Assembly: GCA_964016885.1 (NCBI GenBank)
Contig: OZ024743.1
Coordinates: forward strand, 65,038,001-65,102,000
DNA: 64,000 nt
Direction: 5' to 3'
DNA from: Eledone cirrhosa
Lineage: Eukaryota
Part shown: positions 22,696-63,300 of the stretch, piece by piece
Numbering within the stretch: the first letter of the stretch is position 1
Layout: every line of letters begins with the position of its first letter
Program-made: the position numbers and the translations under genes
The notes under the pieces: model-generated
Told to the model about the DNA's origin: nothing
Database searches by the model: none
What the model saw: the letters and a program-made list of their open reading frames with translations, nothing else

Positions 22696-23612
22696 TAGAA
22701 GTTGAACAGAAAAAACAGAGAAACATACAGAAGAAATAAAGCTTACTTTTGTTGTTTTGATTCATTGATATACCCCGGGCTGATATTTGGTGTTGCTCTC
22801 TCAAAGCACCGGTGACATATATATCCATGTATTATTAAAGGATGTGTAGCAAGCTACTTTCCTTTGGCGCATTGATACTCCGTTCATGCGTGCTTTGGCT
22901 AAGTCAGGCCAATCGTCATCCGCGCACGGATATGTATTTTCAACTTCCGCCCAAACCGAGACTTTCCCACTTCTTTTAACAAACTAATCCTCTTTGCACG
23001 TCAACGCTGGTAAGGTAAACACCAGTTCTTATTTTGCTCCGTATACATTGACCAATATGTAACCAACAAAATAACCACTAGACCGTGCCTTCTCTTGCAA
23101 TCTTAATTTGTTTGGCATGCCACCTCTACTCACTTCAACCTCTGTTAATAAATCATATAAAAACATTGTAAAGTCTTGTGATGCTATTTACCACAGCCAT
23201 ACCTTTAAATATGATATGGAAAGATTCTTTCCATAGTTATATTCACAGCAGCCAATAGCACCTGAGACTTACAGCCGAAACCTCAATTCAACTTACATTT
23301 ATTGATATAACAAACCATACCTTACCAATTACATAACAAATACATTGTTGTTACATATTGGTGAACGCTATTGATACATACATAATACAAACAATACTAA
23401 ATATTATCATTCTCGTTAATATAATTTTGAATACTTCTAAAGATGTGTAAATAGGTACTCAATACCAATGTTGAGTTTAAATATTCACCAGATAGCCATT
23501 AATTGAATATTTAAACTCGACTTTGTATAAAATCTATTTTTATAATATTCTTAATAAACATAAAATAATAGATAGGTATGAAAAATTAAAGACAATTTTT
23601 ATATCTTCTCAC

Positions 23613-24792: not shown

Positions 24793-26336
24793 ACACACAC
24801 ATTGTGTGACAGACGGACGGAAATTGCTCAAATTTATATAATGATAGTGAATTGTTAGAACATCAGATAGAATACTTTGTAGTAATTGTTCCAGCTCTCT
24901 GCACACTGAGTTCAAATCCTATCGAGGTTAACTTTGCCTTTCCTCTTTTTTAAGTTGATAAAGTACTGGGATCGATTCTTCCTTGATCTCTCTTTCTCAC
25001 TTAACTTCCTCTCTATCACTCTCTCTCCTTAACTGTGTTCAGACCTTGAGGGGAGATGGGCTATGCCAAGTTTAAAAATGCCCAAGACACACAGTATATC
25101 ACTACAAACCCCCCATGATTCCACCTGGAGAGTTATTTCTTTTTATTAGTAAGCTGATATTTAGAAAATGACATAAAAGTGTTTAAATTAGAATTATCAT
25201 GGGGGGATTTAATATAAGGTTAACCCTTTAGAATTTACATTACTCTATATTTACTATTGTATTTTCACAGTAAAGGCTTTATCTCACATAATATCGAATC
25301 TATGAGATTTTGATCTTATTTGTTTTGAGAACAATACCTTAACATCAGTATGAGTGGCCAGTTATGGCCAGTTTGAACAGAAAGAGGTGAGAGAGTTCTG
25401 GCCGGTTTAAATGCTAAAGGGTTAAACATTTAAAAAAAATCAGTCTTGTATCATTAATCCAAGGCAATTCCACACAGCAATACAATTTACAGAATATAAC
25501 GGCGGAGTGGGGTGGTGCAATGAAGATTCTTGTAGGTCACTCAATTTGCTAGATATAGCAGCTAAATTTACTTCAAACCACAACTTAGGACATGTTGAAA
25601 AATTTAGTCCTAAATACACTATTGCTGAAAACTAGGTGGAGTGGTCATGTTTAGAACACCTTTGATTAAAGCTCTACTCAATTAGGGTTGACCTGGGGCC
25701 CAAACATTTATAGTCTGTTGGACCAAATGCTTTGTGGTATTTGGTCATGAACCATCAAGGTGAATTTTGTCTACCTTTCATCTTCTTGCGTATGAGTTGG
25801 TCTCGGGTTGTTATTATTTGCCTAATCGATATCAAAGCCCAGTGACCAGTTTCCAGGGCCCACCACAAGGAGGTTGACAAACTCTTCCTTTAAGCTGAGT
25901 TCAATAAAATGAACCCTTTTGATATCAACCTGACTGGTTCAATGAAACAAAACCACACATTATAAAGGGTTCCTATTAAAACTAAAATCTAGTTTCATTT
26001 TATATAAGAACCAGTCATAAAATAATTAATAATTTTAGCAAATCTCTCCAAATTCTTCATTAATTAATTGAAATAATATATAATTAGAAATATGGTAATG
26101 AAACAGTTAAGTACCAGGTAATGTACTGGTGTTGGTATGATTGACTATATATATCATCATCATACACACACACACATATATATATTTATACAAATAATGA
26201 ATCAAAACATATCAAATATGTTAGAATTTTGTGTTTCTCAATAAGCAAGCTCAATAGACTTTATCTAGAGCCATAATAAACCAAATGAAAAAGATATATA
26301 TGTAGGAGTGTTAATATTCATTTTAAGGATGAATAG

Positions 26337-26393
26337 TGAGTCTTGTTACTCGGGAGTTTCACCTGCTTATCACAGGGTCATCAGACATTAGTC
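26337..26393 (-). ncRNA. Hammerhead ribozyme motif (family 1)
   Basis: Reverse complement: TGT-CTGATGA-c-CCTGT-gataa-GCAGG-t-GAAA-CTC-cc-GAG-TA|ACAAGA. Confidence 0.72.
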
Positions 26394-26757
26394 TTAATAA
26401 AATCAATACATCACCATCATTTAACGTCCTTTTTCCACGCTAGTATGGGTTAGACGAGTTGTCCTGTCGACAGACAACCACGTTTTGCTCACACAGTGCT
26501 GATTTCGGCTTGGTCTCTACAACTAGATGCCCCTCCTAACGTCAAACACATTTACAGTATGTGCTGGGTGCTTTTTGTCGTGACACTTACACAACCACTT
26601 TACAGTGTAGACTTATTGTCGTAGCTTCAGGATGGTCACTTTATAGTATGGATTGGGGACTTGGTGTGGGGGGGGGGGGGGATGATGAATTGGGGAGATA
26701 GATATAGGGGTGTATGGGAGGGAAGGTGATGCATACTAGATGTGTTTCAGCTCCTGC

Positions 26758-27020: not shown

Positions 27021-27066
27021 GTCTGATGACCCTGTAATAAATAGGTGAAACTTCAGAGTAACAAGA
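27021..27066 (+). ncRNA. Hammerhead ribozyme motif (family 1, 5' stem I truncated by (TA)n)
   Basis: GT-CTGATGA-c-CCTGT-aataa-ATAGG-t-GAAA-CTT-ca-GAG-TA|ACAAGA. Confidence 0.68.
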
Positions 27067-27614
27067 ATGACTATTTAGCCTTAATAAAATGTGTGTGTAT
27101 ATATATATATAAAGTGTTTCCGTAGGAAAGGTAAAGGAAAAGAGAGTGCTCTATCTAGGCTGCAGAGCTTTTTAGTTATGTACATAACTATATATATATA
27201 TATAATGTATGTATGTGTATATATATATATATATATATATAATTAAGGTTTTCCAGAGGCACCGACAGATCCGAAGTTACATAAGACCCCCCCAATACAT
27301 TTGTAGAGAAAGTACATGATTTATTTCATACAGAAATTACTTTTCCTCAACTAGAACTATTTCATTCGTAATTGTTTGAGCCAATTTATTTTAATTCATA
27401 GGAAACAGAAACAAAATAAATTGTTTTATAATCAAAAGAAAATTTCAGAAGATATATTTAATTGGAAAAATCATCAATTTAATTGCGGAAGTCTAACCGC
27501 AATTGGAAATCGACACATGTGAGTTTGTTTGGAGAAATCACACACACTAATATATATATCTACGTATTTATTTTTTATATATAATTTATAAAAACGCTAA
27601 AGGCGCATACTTAC

Positions 27615-49802: not shown

Positions 49803-51416
49803 GTAAGATGGTTTTTTTTCTTCTTCTTTTTCACCCACTTATTCCTAGGAGGGTCATGGGAGTAGAGTCCTCAAACATACTTTTGAGCCAGTCATGCCAG
49901 AAGCAACTGTCTCCAACTGATCTGGCTGGATCCTCAAGTGAGACCAGCGAAGCTCATGGATGTTTCCAACCATCTTGCTCAGAGTCTACCCCTAGGTCTC
50001 CTGCCGCTTAGTTTTGCCTGTAAAATCTGTCCAGCTAATCTTTCCTGAGACATTCAAACCACATCCCAATAGTATTGGAGCTGTGATCTCTCAATCTGGA
50101 GAAATAGCAGTTCAACCTGGAGTGACTCTCCTATCTCCGAGCTACAAACTCTATCGAGTAACGTTACTCAAAAAAAAAAGGCACTGTACTACCTGGCAAA
50201 AATAATACAATCCCATGTTATCATAGAGAATTGTATTTCCAGTGAAAGTAATGATTACTAAATACCCCTCTCTAGCTTACTTTGGAATCATGAGTTGCGA
50301 TTTGTTGCAGATATTTCATTATCCCTTTTTGATCCCAAACCACCTTGGATTTCTGATACAAAACTGCTCATTTAAAAAATATTTATATGTATATTAAATC
50401 ATCATCATCATCAATGTAATGTTCACTTTCCCTGCTAGTTAGGATTGGACGGATCTACATAGACCAAGTCAGTACTGAAGCGGTGCCAGGGATCAGTGTC
50501 TCACTTTAATGTATGGTCGACGCTCCACTTAGTACACAGGAGAGGTTGTCATGTTTTTGACCCAAATGAAGGTCCTCTCAACCCTTTTGTTTGGCATGGT
50601 TTCTATGGCTGGAGGCCCTTCCTGTCACTAACCACTTTACAGCATGTACTGGGTGCGTTTATCGTGTAAATCACCAAAACTAATCTGGCCGAGTTTACTC
50701 TCGCAAATAAGGAGCATTGGATTTGGTGTACTTCATATTTGTTTCAGTTGCTGAATACAATCAGGGATCGCTGCTACTCCTGAAGGGCAATAGTTCTCTT
50801 CTAACTCGAGCGGGAGTGTCTTTCCATTGTCAATTTGCATTGATCATCTGCAAAGCCGCATTGTTCTCAGAACCACTACACCAGTCTTTTGATGCGTGCA
50901 GCTGGAACTACTGCCACCCATTGATTTGGCAGGATTTATTTATTTTAGATGGTCGTTGACTCTTATGAGTTCTTCCGCCCTTTGTTAGGTTGTGTTTTTT
51001 GTCTTAGGAAGACTGTAATGCTCTTGACACAGCTGAAGGGTCCTCCTGACCCTTTATCTGGCAAGCTTTCTACAGCTGGATGCCCTTCATAATTTTATTT
51101 AAGAAAGTTTTGTAGAAGTAATGTTCTGAACATCAGCTTATGAAAAACTTGCCATATATACTTGAATATAAGCTAAACCCATATTTTGTCTGAGAAGTAG
51201 GCAAAAATCCAAGCCTCATTTATAAGCTGAAGCAGGTAATCAACACATTGTGGTTTTAAAACTCTTATGAGTGGAGAATATATATATGAAGTTTTAATAT
51301 ATATTGAATAAACAAGAGAGATGAACACTAATATAAACATACATGTGTTCGAATCGTAAGGACCAAGTTTGCTAGGGTGAAAAATATATATATATATATA
51401 AAAGCTAAAAAGTGAG

Positions 51417-51464
51417 CCTTGTTACTCTGGAGTTTTGCCTGTTTAACACAGGATCAGCAGACAA
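51417..51464 (-). ncRNA. Degenerate hammerhead motif (family 1)
   Basis: Reverse complement: TTGT-CTGcTGA-t-CCTGT-gttaa-ACAGG-c-aAAA-CTC-ca-GAG-TA|ACAA; two core mutations. Confidence 0.55.
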
Positions 51465-56704: not shown

Positions 56705-56881
<177 letters not shown>

Positions 56882-58385
56882 TAGAGGGTCGGACGCCATG
56901 CTTTCCAGCATAGTTACGTCCCTTTACGATCTGAGTTCAAATCCTGCCGAGGTTGACTTTGCCTTTCATCCTTACGGGGTCGATAAAATAAAGTACCAGT
57001 AATGCACTGGGTAATTGCTGGCCTTGTGCCTAAAGTAGAAACAATTATTTAGTTTATTAATTTGTTTCAAGTATTTCAAAATAATTGTTATTTTGTTCCC
57101 TTCAATTCTTTGCATGATTTAAACTATTCACATTTTTGATATGTGTGTATTTGTGTTTCTCCTCTCTTTTATATATATATATATATATATAAAAATTATC
57201 AAAGACCCCCTTTGGTCACAAATGACCATGTGATTTGCACCTAGAAAGGCACAAGTCTACAAGTCTGGGCAAGGTTATTTGGGGAAGACCAGCAGTCGCC
57301 CATGCGTACCAGCCTCCTCTCTCCACACCACCGATGATGTCCCAGGGAAAGGCATCAGTGACTTTGCAACTCATTTCTACAGCTGAGTAAATTGGTGCAA
57401 CGTGAAATAAAGTGTCTTGCTCAATGCATCCCTGGTCCAAGAATCGAACTCACACCCTTTCTATTGCAAGCTCTAACCATTAAGCCATGTGCCTTAACAT
57501 ATGTATTATATATATATAGTAGGCATCTCTAACAAAATACACCCCGTCCCGCCACCACCCCCACCCCATCCACACCACCCCGTTCTATGTAAAGTTATGT
57601 TGGTGCCGCGCCATCCAGGCCGAAACAAATGAGATCGTGTAGGTGTCACGACAAAAAAACACACAGTCCACGCTGTAATGTGGCCGTGTAGGCAACACGG
57701 TAAAAACCTCCCAGACCCACACTGTAAATGTGGTTGGTGTTAGGAAGGGCATCCAACTGTAGAAAACCTGCCAGACAGTCCTATGCGAGCAAGACAATCA
57801 CTCTTGCCTCAAGTGGGACTACCCCCGTCCAAACCCATGCAAGCGTGGAACACGGACGTTAAACATTGATGATGATGATGATGATATATAATGGCTTAAT
57901 ATGGAGGCACATGGCTTAGTGGTTAGAGCATTGGCCTTGCAATCGAAAGGTTGTGAGTTCAATTCTCAGACTGGGTGATGTGTTGTTTCTTTGAGCAAGA
58001 CACTTTATTTCACATTGCTCTAGTTTACTCAACTGTAGAAATGAGATGATAGGGACTGCAAAGTGGTCGTGGAGGTGCCATGGCAAAAAAGCACCCAGCC
58101 CACACTATAAAGTGGATGTGTAGGCGCCACGGTAAAAAGCACCCAGCACTCACTGTAAATGAGGTTGGTGTTAGGAAGGGCATCCAGCTGTAGAAATCAA
58201 GCCAGAATCAGTTCCTGTCCCACCCTTGCAAGCAGGGAAAAGCGAACGTAAAATGATGATGATAAATATATAAAAATTACCAGGATTAAATTACATTAAA
58301 TTATTTATCTATATATGTATATATATTCTTTAATATGGCTAAGTGGTGAGTCTTGTTTCTCTGGAATTTCATGTGGGTATTCACA

Positions 58386-58442
58386 GAGTTCTTGTCTGAT
58401 GACCCTGTGATAAACAGGCGAAACTCCAGAGTAACAAGACTC
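58386..58442 (+). ncRNA. Minimal type-I hammerhead ribozyme (family 1, most intact copy)
   Basis: TCTTGT-CTGATGA-c-CCTGT-gataa-ACAGG-c-GAAA-CTC-ca-GAG-TA|ACAAGA; stems I-III all pair; predicted cleavage after 58433. Confidence 0.8.
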
Positions 58443-58594
58443 ACCACTGAGCCATAATAACAAATATTTAAACTCTATTTTGGTATTGAGTACTCATCCT
58501 CACATCTGTCAATATCACACACCTGTGTTTGTGTATGTGTAAATACATATATTGTGTGTGTGTATGTGTATATATTTATATGTATGTCTGTGTG

Positions 58595-59627
58595 TATATA
58601 GGAGGACAAATAAGGAAATTTCAGACTTTCTCAGCGTTAGCAGGAGAATGGTGGAAAAGGTCAGAAAGGAATTGGAAGATTCAGGATTCGACTACGAAGC
58701 AACATCAGAGAGCAAAACACATGATCGACGATCTGACGCCTTCAGAACGCCCGAGTTCGTCACTGAAATTCAGGATATCATCAACAATGAACCTAGCAAG
58801 TCGATGCGTGCCATTGCAAGGGAGAAAGGCGTGGATGAAAAGCTCATTAGGCTGGTGGTACATGAAGACATTCGCTACGTTTCATACAAGATGAGGACAG
58901 GACAATTTCTGTCAAAGGCGATGCAAGAAAAGGGACTGAAGCACGCAAAGAAGCTGATCAACAAGTTGAAACACCCACCGGAGCCAGACATGCTGTGGTT
59001 TTTCTCTGACGAGAAAAACTTCTGCCAAGACCAGAAGATCAACTCCCAGAACAACAGGTGGCTCGCTGTCTCATCCAAAGACATGCCCAGAGTTATGCAG
59101 ACAAAGTTTCAAGCCACAACATTGGTCTTAGGTGTCGTCAGCAGTCAAGATGACGTCATGCCGCCGCACTTCTTCCCTGAGGGCCTCAAGTTGAATACCG
59201 ATGGCTACATCCGCGTTCTGAGCGAGGTAGTAAAGCCCTGCCATACCAGCCGAAAGACCCAAGCCTGGCTGTCAGAGAACTTCGTCGACCACACTTAATC
59301 TGATATCTAGCCTCCCAGCTCACCTGACTGCAACCCCCTCGACTTCTTTGTGTGGGGCGCAGTGGAACAAGACACCAACAGATCTAGCTGCAATGCGAAA
59401 GATGATCTGAAGGCCAGGATCACAAGTGCCTTTAGGGGCCTAAGTCGGGGGACAGTGACGAAGACCTGTAGCCGGTTCCGAGGCCGTCATCAAAGCCAAT
59501 GGCGGGTTTATCAAGTGAGATCGAAAGAACAAGTCATGAAGACAAACTGACCCAAGTTTGATAAATATATCTTAAAAAATAAAACTACTGTGTTAATTTT
59601 TCCTAGACAGTAATCGTCTGCACACTG
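58595..59627 (+). mobile_element. Tc1/mariner (maT/DD37D-like) transposase pseudogene
   Basis: WFFSDEKNF, LGVVS, PPHFF, PPSSPDCNPLDFFVWG; ends CACTG|TA; internal deletion and stops; 5' end lost. Confidence 0.88.
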
Positions 59628-59976
59628 TATATATATATATACACACACACTGTAAAGTGTGTATATGTGGTTGATCATAGGATGGGCATCCAGCCATAGA
59701 AATCTTGCCAAACAAAAGGGTTGGGAGGACCCTCAGTTGTGTCAAAGATATGATAACCTCTCCTGTGCATTCTGTGGAGCCTCGAGATCCGATTCCTGAC
59801 CTGCCTGGGCGATCAGTAGCCACCCTTTCAGTACTGACTTGGTCTATGTAGACCCATCCAACCCTTGCTTGCAGGGAAAGTTTTTTGCGGCTGGATGTTA
59901 TTAGATGTTGTTGTTATCTACCTGTCGTTGTTTATTTCATGTATTTTAGTAAATAATTATTTATTATATTGTTCAG

Positions 59977-60142
59977 CTCCATTACCAACGTCTACCTCGA
60001 GACATTCAAACTTGCCATGTCATGTTAATGGACGCTACTGTTGCTACTGGTGCTGCTGCTATGATGGCCATCCGAGTCTTACTGGATCATGATGTACCTG
60101 AAGAAAACATCACCCTGCTTTCTTTGTTGATGGCTCTTTCAG
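59977..60142 (+). CDS. UCKL1: UCKL1 exon 12 (gene continues past window)
   Basis: [10 protein letters not shown]...[31 protein letters not shown]; donor gtgagc; terminal exon (expected ...FGDRYFG) not in window. Confidence 0.95.
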
Positions 60143-60184: not shown

Positions 60185-60395
60185 GCTTCAGCCATTAGAG
60201 TGTGGCCATGCTGGTGCCATGGCCTTGATTTAGTTGATCATATCAATCACTACATATTTTATTGGTCTCAGTCATTTGACTGGCCATGCTGGGGCATCAA
60301 CTTGATTTAGTTCATCATATCAACCACAGTACATATTTTATTGGTTTCAGTCATTTGACTGGCCATGCTGGGGCATCGACTTGATTTAGTTGATC
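60185..60395. repeat. 78-79 bp tandem repeat, about 2.7 copies
   Basis: GGCCATGCTG at 60204, 60282 and 60361. Confidence 0.85.
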
Positions 60396-63300
60396 CATTA
60401 GTAGTTAGATTAAGACCCTGTATGTTACAATGGTGCCCCTCTGACTTCATTAGTAGTTAGACTAAGACACTGTATGTTACAATGGTGCCCCTCTGACTTC
60501 ATCAGTAGTTAGTCTAAGACACTGTATGTTACAATGGTGCCCCTCTGACTTCATCAGTAGTTAGACTAAGACCCTGTATGTTACAATGGTGCCCCTCTGA
60601 CTTCATCAGTAGTTAGACTAAGACCCTGTATGTTACAATGGTGCCCCTCTGACTTCATCAGTAGTTAGACTAAGACACTGTATGTTACAATGGTGCCCCT
60701 CTGACTTCATCAGTAGTTAGACTAAGACCCTGTATGTTACAATGGTGCCCCTCTGACTTCATCAGTAGTTAGACTAAGATACTGTATGTTACAATGGTGC
60801 CCCTCTGACTTCATCAGTAGTTAGACTAAGACACTGTATGTTACAATGGTGCCTCTCTGACTTCATCAGTAGTTAGACTAAGACCCTGTATGTTACAATG
60901 GTGCCCCTCTGACTTCATCAGTAGTTAGACTAAGACACTGTATGTTACAATGGTGCCTCTCTGACTTCATCAGTAGTTAGACTAAGACCCTGTATGTTAC
61001 AATGGTGCCCCTCTGACTTCATCAGTAGTTAGACTAAGACTCTGTATGTTACAATGGTGCCTCTCTGACTTCATCAGTAGTTAGACTAAGACTCTGTATG
61101 TTACAATGGTGCCCCTCTGACTTCATCAGTAGTTAGACTAAGACACTATGTTACAATGGTGCCTCTTTGACTTCATCAGTAGTTAGTCTAAGACACTGTA
61201 TGTTACAATGGTGCCTCTCTGACTTCATCAGTAGTTAGACTAAGACACTGTATGTTACAATGGTGCCTCTCTGACTTCAGTAGTTAGACTATGACACTGT
61301 ATGTTACAATGGTGCCTCTCTGACTTCATCAGTAGTTAGTCTAAGACACTGTATGTTACAATGGTGCCCCTCTGACTTCATCAGTAGTTAGACTAAGACA
61401 CTGTATGTTACAATGGTGCCCCTCTAGCTTCATCAGTAGTTAGACTAAGACACTGTATATTACAATGGTGCCTCTCTGACTTCATCAGTAGTTAGACTAA
61501 GACCCTGTATGTTACAATGGTGCCCCTCTGACTTCATCAGTAGTTAGACTAAGACCCTGTATGTTACAATGGTGCCCCTCTGACTTCATCAGTAGTTAGA
61601 CTAAGACACTGTATGTTACAATGGTGCCCCTCTGACTTCATCAGTAGTTAGACTAAGACACTGTATGTTACAATGGTGCCCCTCTGACTTCATCAGTAGT
61701 TAGACTAAGACACTGTATGTTACAATGCTGCCTCTCTGACTTCATCAGTAGTTAGACTAAGACACTGTATGTTACAATGGTGCCCCTCTGACTTCATCAG
61801 TAGTTAGACTAAGACACTGTATGTTACAATGGTGCCTCTCTGACTTCATCAGTAGTTAGACTAAGACACTGTATGTTACAATGGTGCCCCTCTGACTTCA
61901 TCAGTAGTTAGACTAAGACACTGTATGTTACAATGGTGCCTCTCTGACTTCATCAGTAGTTAGACTAAGACACTGTATGTTACAATGGTGCCTCTCTGAC
62001 TTCATCAGTAGTTAGACTAAGACACTGTATGTTACAATGGTGCCTCTCTGACTTCATCAGTAGTTAGACTAAGACACTGTATGTTACAATGGTGCCCCTT
62101 TGACTTCATCAGTAGTTAGACTAAGACACTGTATGTTACAATGGTGCCTCTCTAGCTTCATCAGTAGTTAGACTAAGACCCTGTATGTTACAATGGTGCC
62201 CCTCTGACTTCATCAGTAGTTAGACTAAGACACTGTATGTTACAATGGTGCCCCTCGACTTCATCAGTAGTTAGACTAAGACACTGTATGTTACAATGGT
62301 GCCTCTCTGACTTCATCAGTAGTTAGACTAAGACACTGTATGTTACAATGGTGCCTCTCTGACTTCATCAGTAGTTAGACTAAGACACTGTATGTTACAA
62401 TGGTGCCTCTCTGACTTCATCAGTAGTTAGACTAAGACACTGTATGTTACAATAGTGCCTCTCTGACTTCATCAGTAGTTAGACTAAGACACTGTATGTT
62501 ACAATGGTGCCTCTCTGACTTCAGTAGTTAGACTAAGACACTGTATGTTACAATGGTGCCCCTCTGACTTCATCAGTAGTTAGACTAAGACACTGTATGT
62601 TACAATGGTGCCTCTCTGACTTCAGTAGTTAGACTAAGACACTGTATGTTACAATGGTGCCTCTCTGACTTCATCAGTAGTTAGTCTAAGACACTGTATG
62701 TTACAATGGTGCCCCTCTGACTTCATCAGTAGTTAGACTAAGACACTGTATGTTACAATGGTGCCCCTCTAGCTTCATCAGTAGTTAGACTAAGACACTG
62801 TATGTTACAATGGTGCCTCTCTGACTTCATCAGTAGTTAGACTAAGACCCTGTATGTTACAATGGTGCCCCTCTGACTTCATCAGTAGTTAGACTAAGAC
62901 CCTGTATGTTACAATGGTGCCCCTCTGACTTCATCAGTAGTTAGACTAAGACACTGTATGTTACAATGGTGCCCCTCTGACTTCATCAGTAGTTAGACTA
63001 AGACACTGTATGTCACAATGGTGCCCCTCTGACTTCATCAGTAGTTAGACTAAGACACTGTATGTTACAATGGTGCCTCTCTGACTTCATCAGTAGTTAG
63101 ACTAAGACACTGTATGTTACAATGGTGCCTCTCTGACTTCATCAGTAGTTAGTCTAAGAGACTGTATGTTACAATGGTGCCCCTCTGACTTCAGTAGTTA
63201 GACTAAGACACTGTATGTTACAATGGTGCCTCTCTGACTTCATCAGTAGTTAGTCTAAGACACTGTATGTTACAATGGTGCCCCTCTGACTTCATCAGTA

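Follow-up and report, generated by a model that had tools for sequence, protein, structure and literature searches.

The 190 bases at positions 58323-58512 of the window (the whole 64-kb stretch of DNA under analysis) are very probably two terminal-repeat copies, head-to-head and truncated at their 5' ends, from a decayed Penelope-like retrotransposon (PLE) of the Hydra clade. They likely arrived in one insertion event and likely have no role in the host gene. The hammerhead-bearing stub and its inverted arm are likely an ordinary by-product of insertion, not a control switch. The locus belongs to a dispersed repeat family whose copies are joined at variable points, pair one long arm with one short arm, share a 5' boundary and do not start preferentially at the ribozyme cut site.

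The two arms abut and point in opposite directions. With family positions numbered from +1 at the C of CUGAUGA, the short arm (58323-58386, minus strand) is an inverted, 5'-truncated terminal repeat covering about +10 to +74; its outer end is the family's short end and lies against (TA)n. The long arm (58387-58512, plus strand) spans -8 to +120, matches the family reference at 88% and begins at the family's common 5' boundary. It alone carries the one-sided 'tail' (58468-58512, plus strand, boundaries approximate), and both arms share the same subfamily variants. The near reverse complementarity between 58335-58370 and 58420-58455, described in the earlier note, is confirmed at 33 of 36 bases, with mismatches opposite 58424, 58432 and 58449. 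That note also recognized an antisense copy of the hammerhead's 3' half, correctly in kind but too short in extent: 58335-58370 is the well-preserved portion of the arm, and in the inner segment, at 58371-58386, an antisense copy of stem II has decayed. The surrounding 141 nt (58325-58465) fold with an energy of -68.2 kcal/mol (z = -11.2), and none of 200 shuffled sequences is equally stable. In this hairpin, GAAA is paired as proposed, as are two bases of GUA, G58431 and A58433; U58432 faces another U. Short-read contigs are identical to the window over 58278-58410 and 58420-58491, in a run that is possibly the assembly's own sample; with that caveat, these exact matches indicate that the inverted repeat is not an assembly artefact.

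The type I hammerhead motif occupies 58386-58442 on the plus strand, as judged by sequence, folding and by-eye comparison with the Hydra-2_aMil HHR (PMC8557442, File S2). Stem I (58386-58395/58434-58442) has nine base pairs and one bulge, stem II (58404-58408/58414-58418) has five base pairs, and stem III (58423-58426/58429-58432) is short at 3-4 bp. The core elements CUGAUGA (58396-58402) and GAAA (58420-58423) are accompanied by GUA at 58431-58433, with cleavage predicted after 58433. The canonical core (C3-A9, G12-A14, A15.1-U16.1 and H17) and all three stems are present. The hammerhead had been called intact, and its core bases are indeed complete, but the conserved pair 10.1-11.1 is a C-C mismatch (C58403/C58419), at this locus as in most family members, and the word therefore overstates its condition. 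Rfam reports no hammerhead in the 64-kb window at the gathering threshold, its sole match being tRNA-like, and the locus has a single HHR with none of the tandem monomers of the non-LTR retrozyme layout. Lunse and colleagues reportedly described dimer-cleaving PLE hammerhead variants in 2017. Pair 10.1-11.1 is the most conserved after A15.1-U16.1 according to an excerpt of PMC3088659, in which hits mispaired at this position were rejected and a U-U variant is reported. The PLE hammerhead consensus has G10.1-C11.1 in the excerpted PMC4209133, which describes PLE hammerheads as weak or inactive as monomers, including a single PLE min-HHR without detectable cleavage. Penelope hammerheads are reported to depend on dimers or on protein assistance (PMC4209133, PMC11167929).

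The family is abundant. Two first-look searches of the 3.0-Gb genome with this region returned 1910 and 2397 candidates, 40 of which were scored in each. The genome was probed for perfect identity, with 146 matches to a core probe of 34 nt, 334 to a 3' probe of 30 nt and none to reversed controls. Among 29 loci (the first 30 of the 146 core-probe matches in positional order, less one duplicate), an inverted arm abuts the copy in 13 and lies within 700 nt in 15. The corresponding share for 3'-probe loci is 39 of 70 with an abutting arm, a figure somewhat inflated because paired loci can be matched through either arm. These 70 were taken in positional order from the 334 matches, skipping three known paired loci, and two of them resemble a duplication. 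With an inverted arm at about half of the sampled family loci, the arrangement is not special to the UCKL1-like locus. The window itself holds a second long-plus-short inverted pair (26306-26408), two tail pieces that form a small inverted pair (23455-23523), a solo copy (27021-27091) and another solo copy (51397-51464) that lies antisense in a UCKL1-like intron and has a broken core. Among the papers listed for octopus hammerhead ribozymes, none describes this family, as judged by title or opening of the abstract. Several inverted arms (L039, L228, L046, L049 and L229) apparently share a deletion of about +22 to +38, from GAAA to GUA, which is flanked by short direct repeats.

The ends of family copies fall into a consistent pattern. 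Their 3' ends lie at two sites, about +74 and about +132, against TA or CA/TG microsatellites. The 39 paired loci comprise 31 long-plus-short, three with both arms long, three with both short and two intermediate; a second set, partly selected for pairs, is long-plus-short in 43 of 48. Junctions are variable, with partner 5' ends from -8 to +96. The 5' ends of copies lie between -8 and +43; -8 marks a boundary, and only 3 of 70 copies extend upstream of -10. The sequence near -8 resembles an initiator motif. Only one of the 70 copies starts at +39, the first base of the cleavage product, and the +36 to +43 bin holds nine 5' ends compared with 8, 9 and 10 in the three preceding bins. Given this lack of excess at +39, derivation of the copies from ribozyme-cleaved RNA was rejected. 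No target-site duplication is readable in the microsatellite flanks, and no empty-site allele appears among the short-read contig joints listed.

The parent element was approached by walking upstream from the repeat, through about 1.5 kb of UTR and into a decayed GIY-YIG domain. The order GIY-YIG remnant, UTR, terminal repeat with hammerhead recurs in four of the 30 loci with the endonuclease domain, over the 1.5 kb analysed at each, and two carry an inverted tail piece upstream. Two further loci (L156 and L317) display a kilobase-scale version, with an inverted RT/ORF piece head-to-head with a sense UTR-hammerhead copy. The RT/EN remnants score 26-48% against a PLE ORF of the same genome that is intact and whose Atlas neighbours carry GIY-YIG/HTH_animal; Pfam gave no informative family for the PLE pieces. 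Decayed copies carry the Hydra motifs KWK, ADKT, CNCRDQTQC and CxxC/CxH (CYLC...CLH) and are flanked by TA, and the Hydra clade is characterized in the excerpted text of PMC8557442 by RWK and DKT motifs, a CxCx5C linker, CxxC/CxH around E/N and (TA)n targets. From these motifs and by-eye comparison, we provisionally assign the family to a decayed PLE of the Hydra clade. It has four features of an EN+ PLE: an RT/GIY-YIG ORF linked to the repeat, a hammerhead, an inverted truncated copy and a one-sided tail. The earlier note's comparison with the inverted partial terminal repeats of Penelope insertions is thus borne out.

The ORFs of the family recovered here are all decayed, and no intact one was found. 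A guessed tail-to-ORF junction sequence has no match at two mismatches, and none of the loci examined has a terminal repeat directly before the ORF, L139 and L198 having sequence other than the tail at that place. As no copy joins the tail to where the ORF begins, the promoter-RNA step is inferred only. Another PLE, P0001 (58,669 candidates), adjoins one copy of the repeat and was considered as the parent. It was rejected, since the repeat is present at only its seed locus of 30 and P0001 has its own, different hammerheads. P0001-type Hydra-like PLEs do retain open 834-codon frames (L122, 3739-6240, read on the minus strand), and L123 contains a copy of this family together with an inverted 680-codon partial copy.

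We propose that such stubs arise by priming on both strands of the target. The element's endonuclease would nick both strands of (TA)n, and reverse transcription would be primed on each, once at the far start (+132, which gives the tail) and once at the near start (+74). The template would be uncleaved RNA with its 5' end likely about 9 nt before CUGAUGA, near -8, and the two short cDNAs would be joined at variable points. Two fixed arm ends and the lack of a pile-up at the ribozyme cut are expected if uncleaved RNA is copied from primers on both strands, starting at two sites. Related behavior is on record: excerpts of PMC11167929 describe an anole Poseidon protein that cuts both strands of AT-rich DNA, starts reverse transcription at two internal sites bracketing the tail and uses uncleaved RNA, ribozyme cleavage being dispensable. 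Likewise, according to the excerpted PMC8557442, it is common for PLE insertions to bear an inverted copy, itself 5'-truncated, at their 5' end and to carry a tail at one end. For D. virilis Penelope, the excerpted PMC2377424 describes an internal promoter as well as inverted terminal repeats that vary. A literature search on PLE twin priming, inversion and tail yielded, by title, only papers on human elements.

Other origins can be envisaged for the inverted arm. It could stem from fold-back DNA synthesis on a single copy, during or after insertion, which we regard as unlikely. Derived bases are shared 4.7 times more often between the arms of one locus than between random pairs (0.0196 versus 0.0042 per site), and subfamily variants shared above chance are what fold-back synthesis would leave, though later arm-to-arm conversion fits too; at some loci the arms are discordant (L037, and L237, L241 and L243 at 10.1). 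Stem I, as a short inverted repeat, is a possible seed for folding back. Synthesis of random length would not, however, place the outer ends on two fixed sites with nearly always one of each (31/39 and 43/48), and the kilobase-scale versions with an inverted ORF piece (L156 and L317) also speak against it. It is scarcely credible that the hairpin spread as a palindrome of fixed form, in the manner of a MITE or a retrozyme. The 40 top-scoring whole-hairpin loci do match over nearly their full length, but a whole-hairpin search selects for the shape, and about half of the position-ordered loci are solo. The arms are unequal and flanked by microsatellite, neither tandem monomers nor a target-site duplication was seen, and the spread of junctions from -9 to +96 largely refutes a fixed unit.

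The host is a UCKL1-like gene on the plus strand, with the stub in sense orientation as the earlier note had it; a PRK/uridine-kinase exon (E = 4e-22) and a UPRTase exon (E = 1.5e-13) support the identification. The stub sits in the middle of intron 56828-59976, about 1.5 kb from both ends, between an upstream coding exon (56705-56827, plus strand, ...GKILIQ, AG/GT bounded) and a downstream coding exon with the UPRTase domain (59977-60142, plus strand, DATVATG). Directly downstream of the stub, 58600-59550 presumably represents a decayed Tc1/mariner-like transposase frame, for which Pfam gave no match. The same intron contains an inverted pair of tRNA-derived SINE-like repeats (57367-57494 and 57905-58048), another intronic source of dsRNA. 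Right after the UPRTase exon, 60240-62000 is a tandem array with a 52-nt unit and copies about 97% identical.

In the UCKL1-like pre-mRNA, the arm is predicted to lock the 3' half of the ribozyme in the hairpin. The proposal that the RNA can fold either way is valid to the extent that both folds exist, but they are far from balanced. For 58330-58460 the hairpin is computed at -68.0 kcal/mol and the best ribozyme-containing fold at -36.4 kcal/mol, a gap of 31.6 kcal/mol that corresponds to a predicted ribozyme share of about 2e-23. For the hammerhead alone, the ribozyme fold makes up 5e-4 of the predicted ensemble, in a model that ignores tertiary contacts of the core. When folding is computed for a series of increasing lengths, GAAA is already paired with the arm once GUA has been made, at a point where stem I is still unable to close, so that by these calculations any cleavage would be masked. 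Silencing of cleavage by the hairpin is in this sense plausible, but its use to UCKL1 gains no support, the same architecture being present at about half of the sampled loci. The masking is best read as a passive by-product, through which the imperfect hammerhead would stay off. The arms at the locus differ at 7 of 50 sites compared with 250 of 2192 (11.4%) across 48 family pairs. With divergence at the level of other loci and decay of the inverted arm's inner part, nothing points to selection keeping the hairpin.

A locus-specific, ADAR-tunable switch, in which editing opens the hairpin and the UCKL1 pre-mRNA is cleaved, is extremely unlikely. The stub is sense-oriented in an intron, its hammerhead core bases are complete, and a near-perfect duplex of about 36 bp, such as this one, is a plausible ADAR substrate. 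The energetics nevertheless argue for a lock, not a switch: from about 32 kcal/mol, the hairpin's advantage falls to only 27.2 kcal/mol when all six adenosines of the 5' arm are made unpairable and to 23.8 kcal/mol when the four outer adenosines of the 3' arm are added, and it is 36.9 kcal/mol if edited adenosines are read as G. Moreover, 10 of the 14 adenosines in the 3' arm, those of GAAA and GUA among them, belong to the ribozyme itself. The ordinary level of arm conservation and the commonness of inverted arms across the family also count against a switch here, as do other inverted repeat pairs in the same intron, for example 57367-57424/57991-58048. A search for literature on ADAR editing of hammerhead ribozymes in cephalopods found no paper.

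Masking could instead matter to selection, with the arms originating by two-strand priming as above. If the hammerhead were weakly active, unmasked sense copies would harm pre-mRNAs and masked copies in sense introns would persist preferentially. We consider such a filter improbable, although the hairpin takes GAAA co-transcriptionally in the folding series, and the two copies in the mapped UCKL1-like gene fit the expectation: the sense copy is masked, and the antisense copy at 51397-51464 is solo with a broken core. Retrozymes are also under-represented in Xenopus introns, according to an excerpt of a preprint (bioRxiv 10.64898/2026.07.22.740005). Two copies are nevertheless a small sample, and copies that start at the cut site are not in excess. 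Cleavage by the monomer is doubtful in view of the C-C at 10.1-11.1, the short stem III and the want of a tandem partner ribozyme, and the PLE min-HHR without detectable cleavage in the PMC4209133 excerpt points in the same direction. Under the preferred reading as an insertion by-product, 58323-58512 may still have been exapted later.

Variation at position 10.1 bears on whether some family members have a better-formed ribozyme. The 94 arms compared have C in 81, T in 10 and A in three, with no G. Genome-wide, sequences that otherwise match the core exactly have 146 C, 10 G, 5 A and 11 T at this position, and a control C site has no G, 3 A and 7 T. G10.1 is accompanied by C11.1 in nine of ten copies and A10.1 by U11.1 in four of five (Fisher p = 0.017). 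The partner arm covers 10.1 and retains C at three of the ten G loci. These observations suggest that, once a copy has inserted, hairpin-templated mutation can restore the 10.1-11.1 pair. The G10.1 copies, among which the UCKL1-like intron copy is not found, could alternatively come from a minority G subfamily. Loss of G10.1 by deletion after a bulged C was rejected. An extra base occurs in none of 87 distinct contexts, and the published homologue in the PMC8557442 supplement, as excerpted, has G straight after CUGAUGA; for both reasons, substitution at 10.1 is likelier. A more far-reaching scenario, which we hold to be highly unlikely, is that insertion builds its own off-switch. The antisense arm, set in front of the hammerhead by two-strand priming, would mask the ribozyme, masked copies would be tolerated in sense introns, and the nine copies with restored G10.1-C11.1 would form a latent pool of intronic ribozymes, some of which, perhaps the UCKL1 copy, would be released to regulate pre-mRNA in a highly editing animal.

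The locus by itself matters little, since similar stubs number in the hundreds to thousands. The family as a whole offers genomic support for a priming model so far shown in vitro, and it carries a warning that complete-core hammerheads in sense introns of such genomes are mostly transposon debris. Should masked copies prove enriched in sense introns, or should editing free cleavage, this would be a new way for transposon debris to become part of RNA regulation.

Among known systems, the nearest named family by eye is Hydra-2_Amil from coral, of the Hydra-clade PLEs (Craig et al. 2021, PMC8557442, in excerpt). Shared with that clade are the C-terminal GIY-YIG, the CxCx5C linker, RWK-like and DKT motifs, (TA)n targets, the inverted 5'-truncated copy and the one-sided tail. 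By eye, the excerpted Hydra-2_aMil entry also has an HHR near the 3' end with CUGAUGA, an ACUC/GAGU stem III and a GUA site; the present family differs from it in having C in place of G at 10.1, a 2-nt instead of a 1-nt loop III and a 3' UTR of about 1.5 kb. The family tail, CTCTAC...GTATTGAG, resembles the 3' end of Hydra-2_Amil by eye in the excerpted PMC8557442 supplement. This likeness hints at a conserved hairpin that the RT may recognize. The octopus family Hydra-1_Obim, with a different hammerhead listed in the excerpt, is not the present family, and two probe strings from the latter were absent from the excerpted PMC8557442 supplement.

D. virilis Penelope (PMC2377424) and anole Poseidon PAc (PMC11167929), both as excerpted, share inverted terminal repeats of variable size, a promoter internal to the terminal repeat, a tail defined by two RT starts and an uncleaved RNA template. 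Compared with those elements, the arms here, at 64 and 126 nt, are very small, the tail is longer (about 58 nt versus 30-40), and the promoter is inferred from the 5' boundary only. The dispersed PLE minimal hammerheads of Cervera and de la Pena 2014 (PMC4209133, in excerpt) likewise include thousands of solo type I motifs and some opposite-strand pairs, but their consensus has a bulged base followed by G10.1-C11.1, in contrast to the C-C and the 3-4-bp stem III of this family. Finally, the domesticated amniote intronic hammerheads RECK and CTCL (PMC6155905, in excerpt) are also type I and sense-oriented in an intron. They occur as single copies, have a canonical form and are conserved between species, whereas the motif described here is one of many decaying copies of a repeat.
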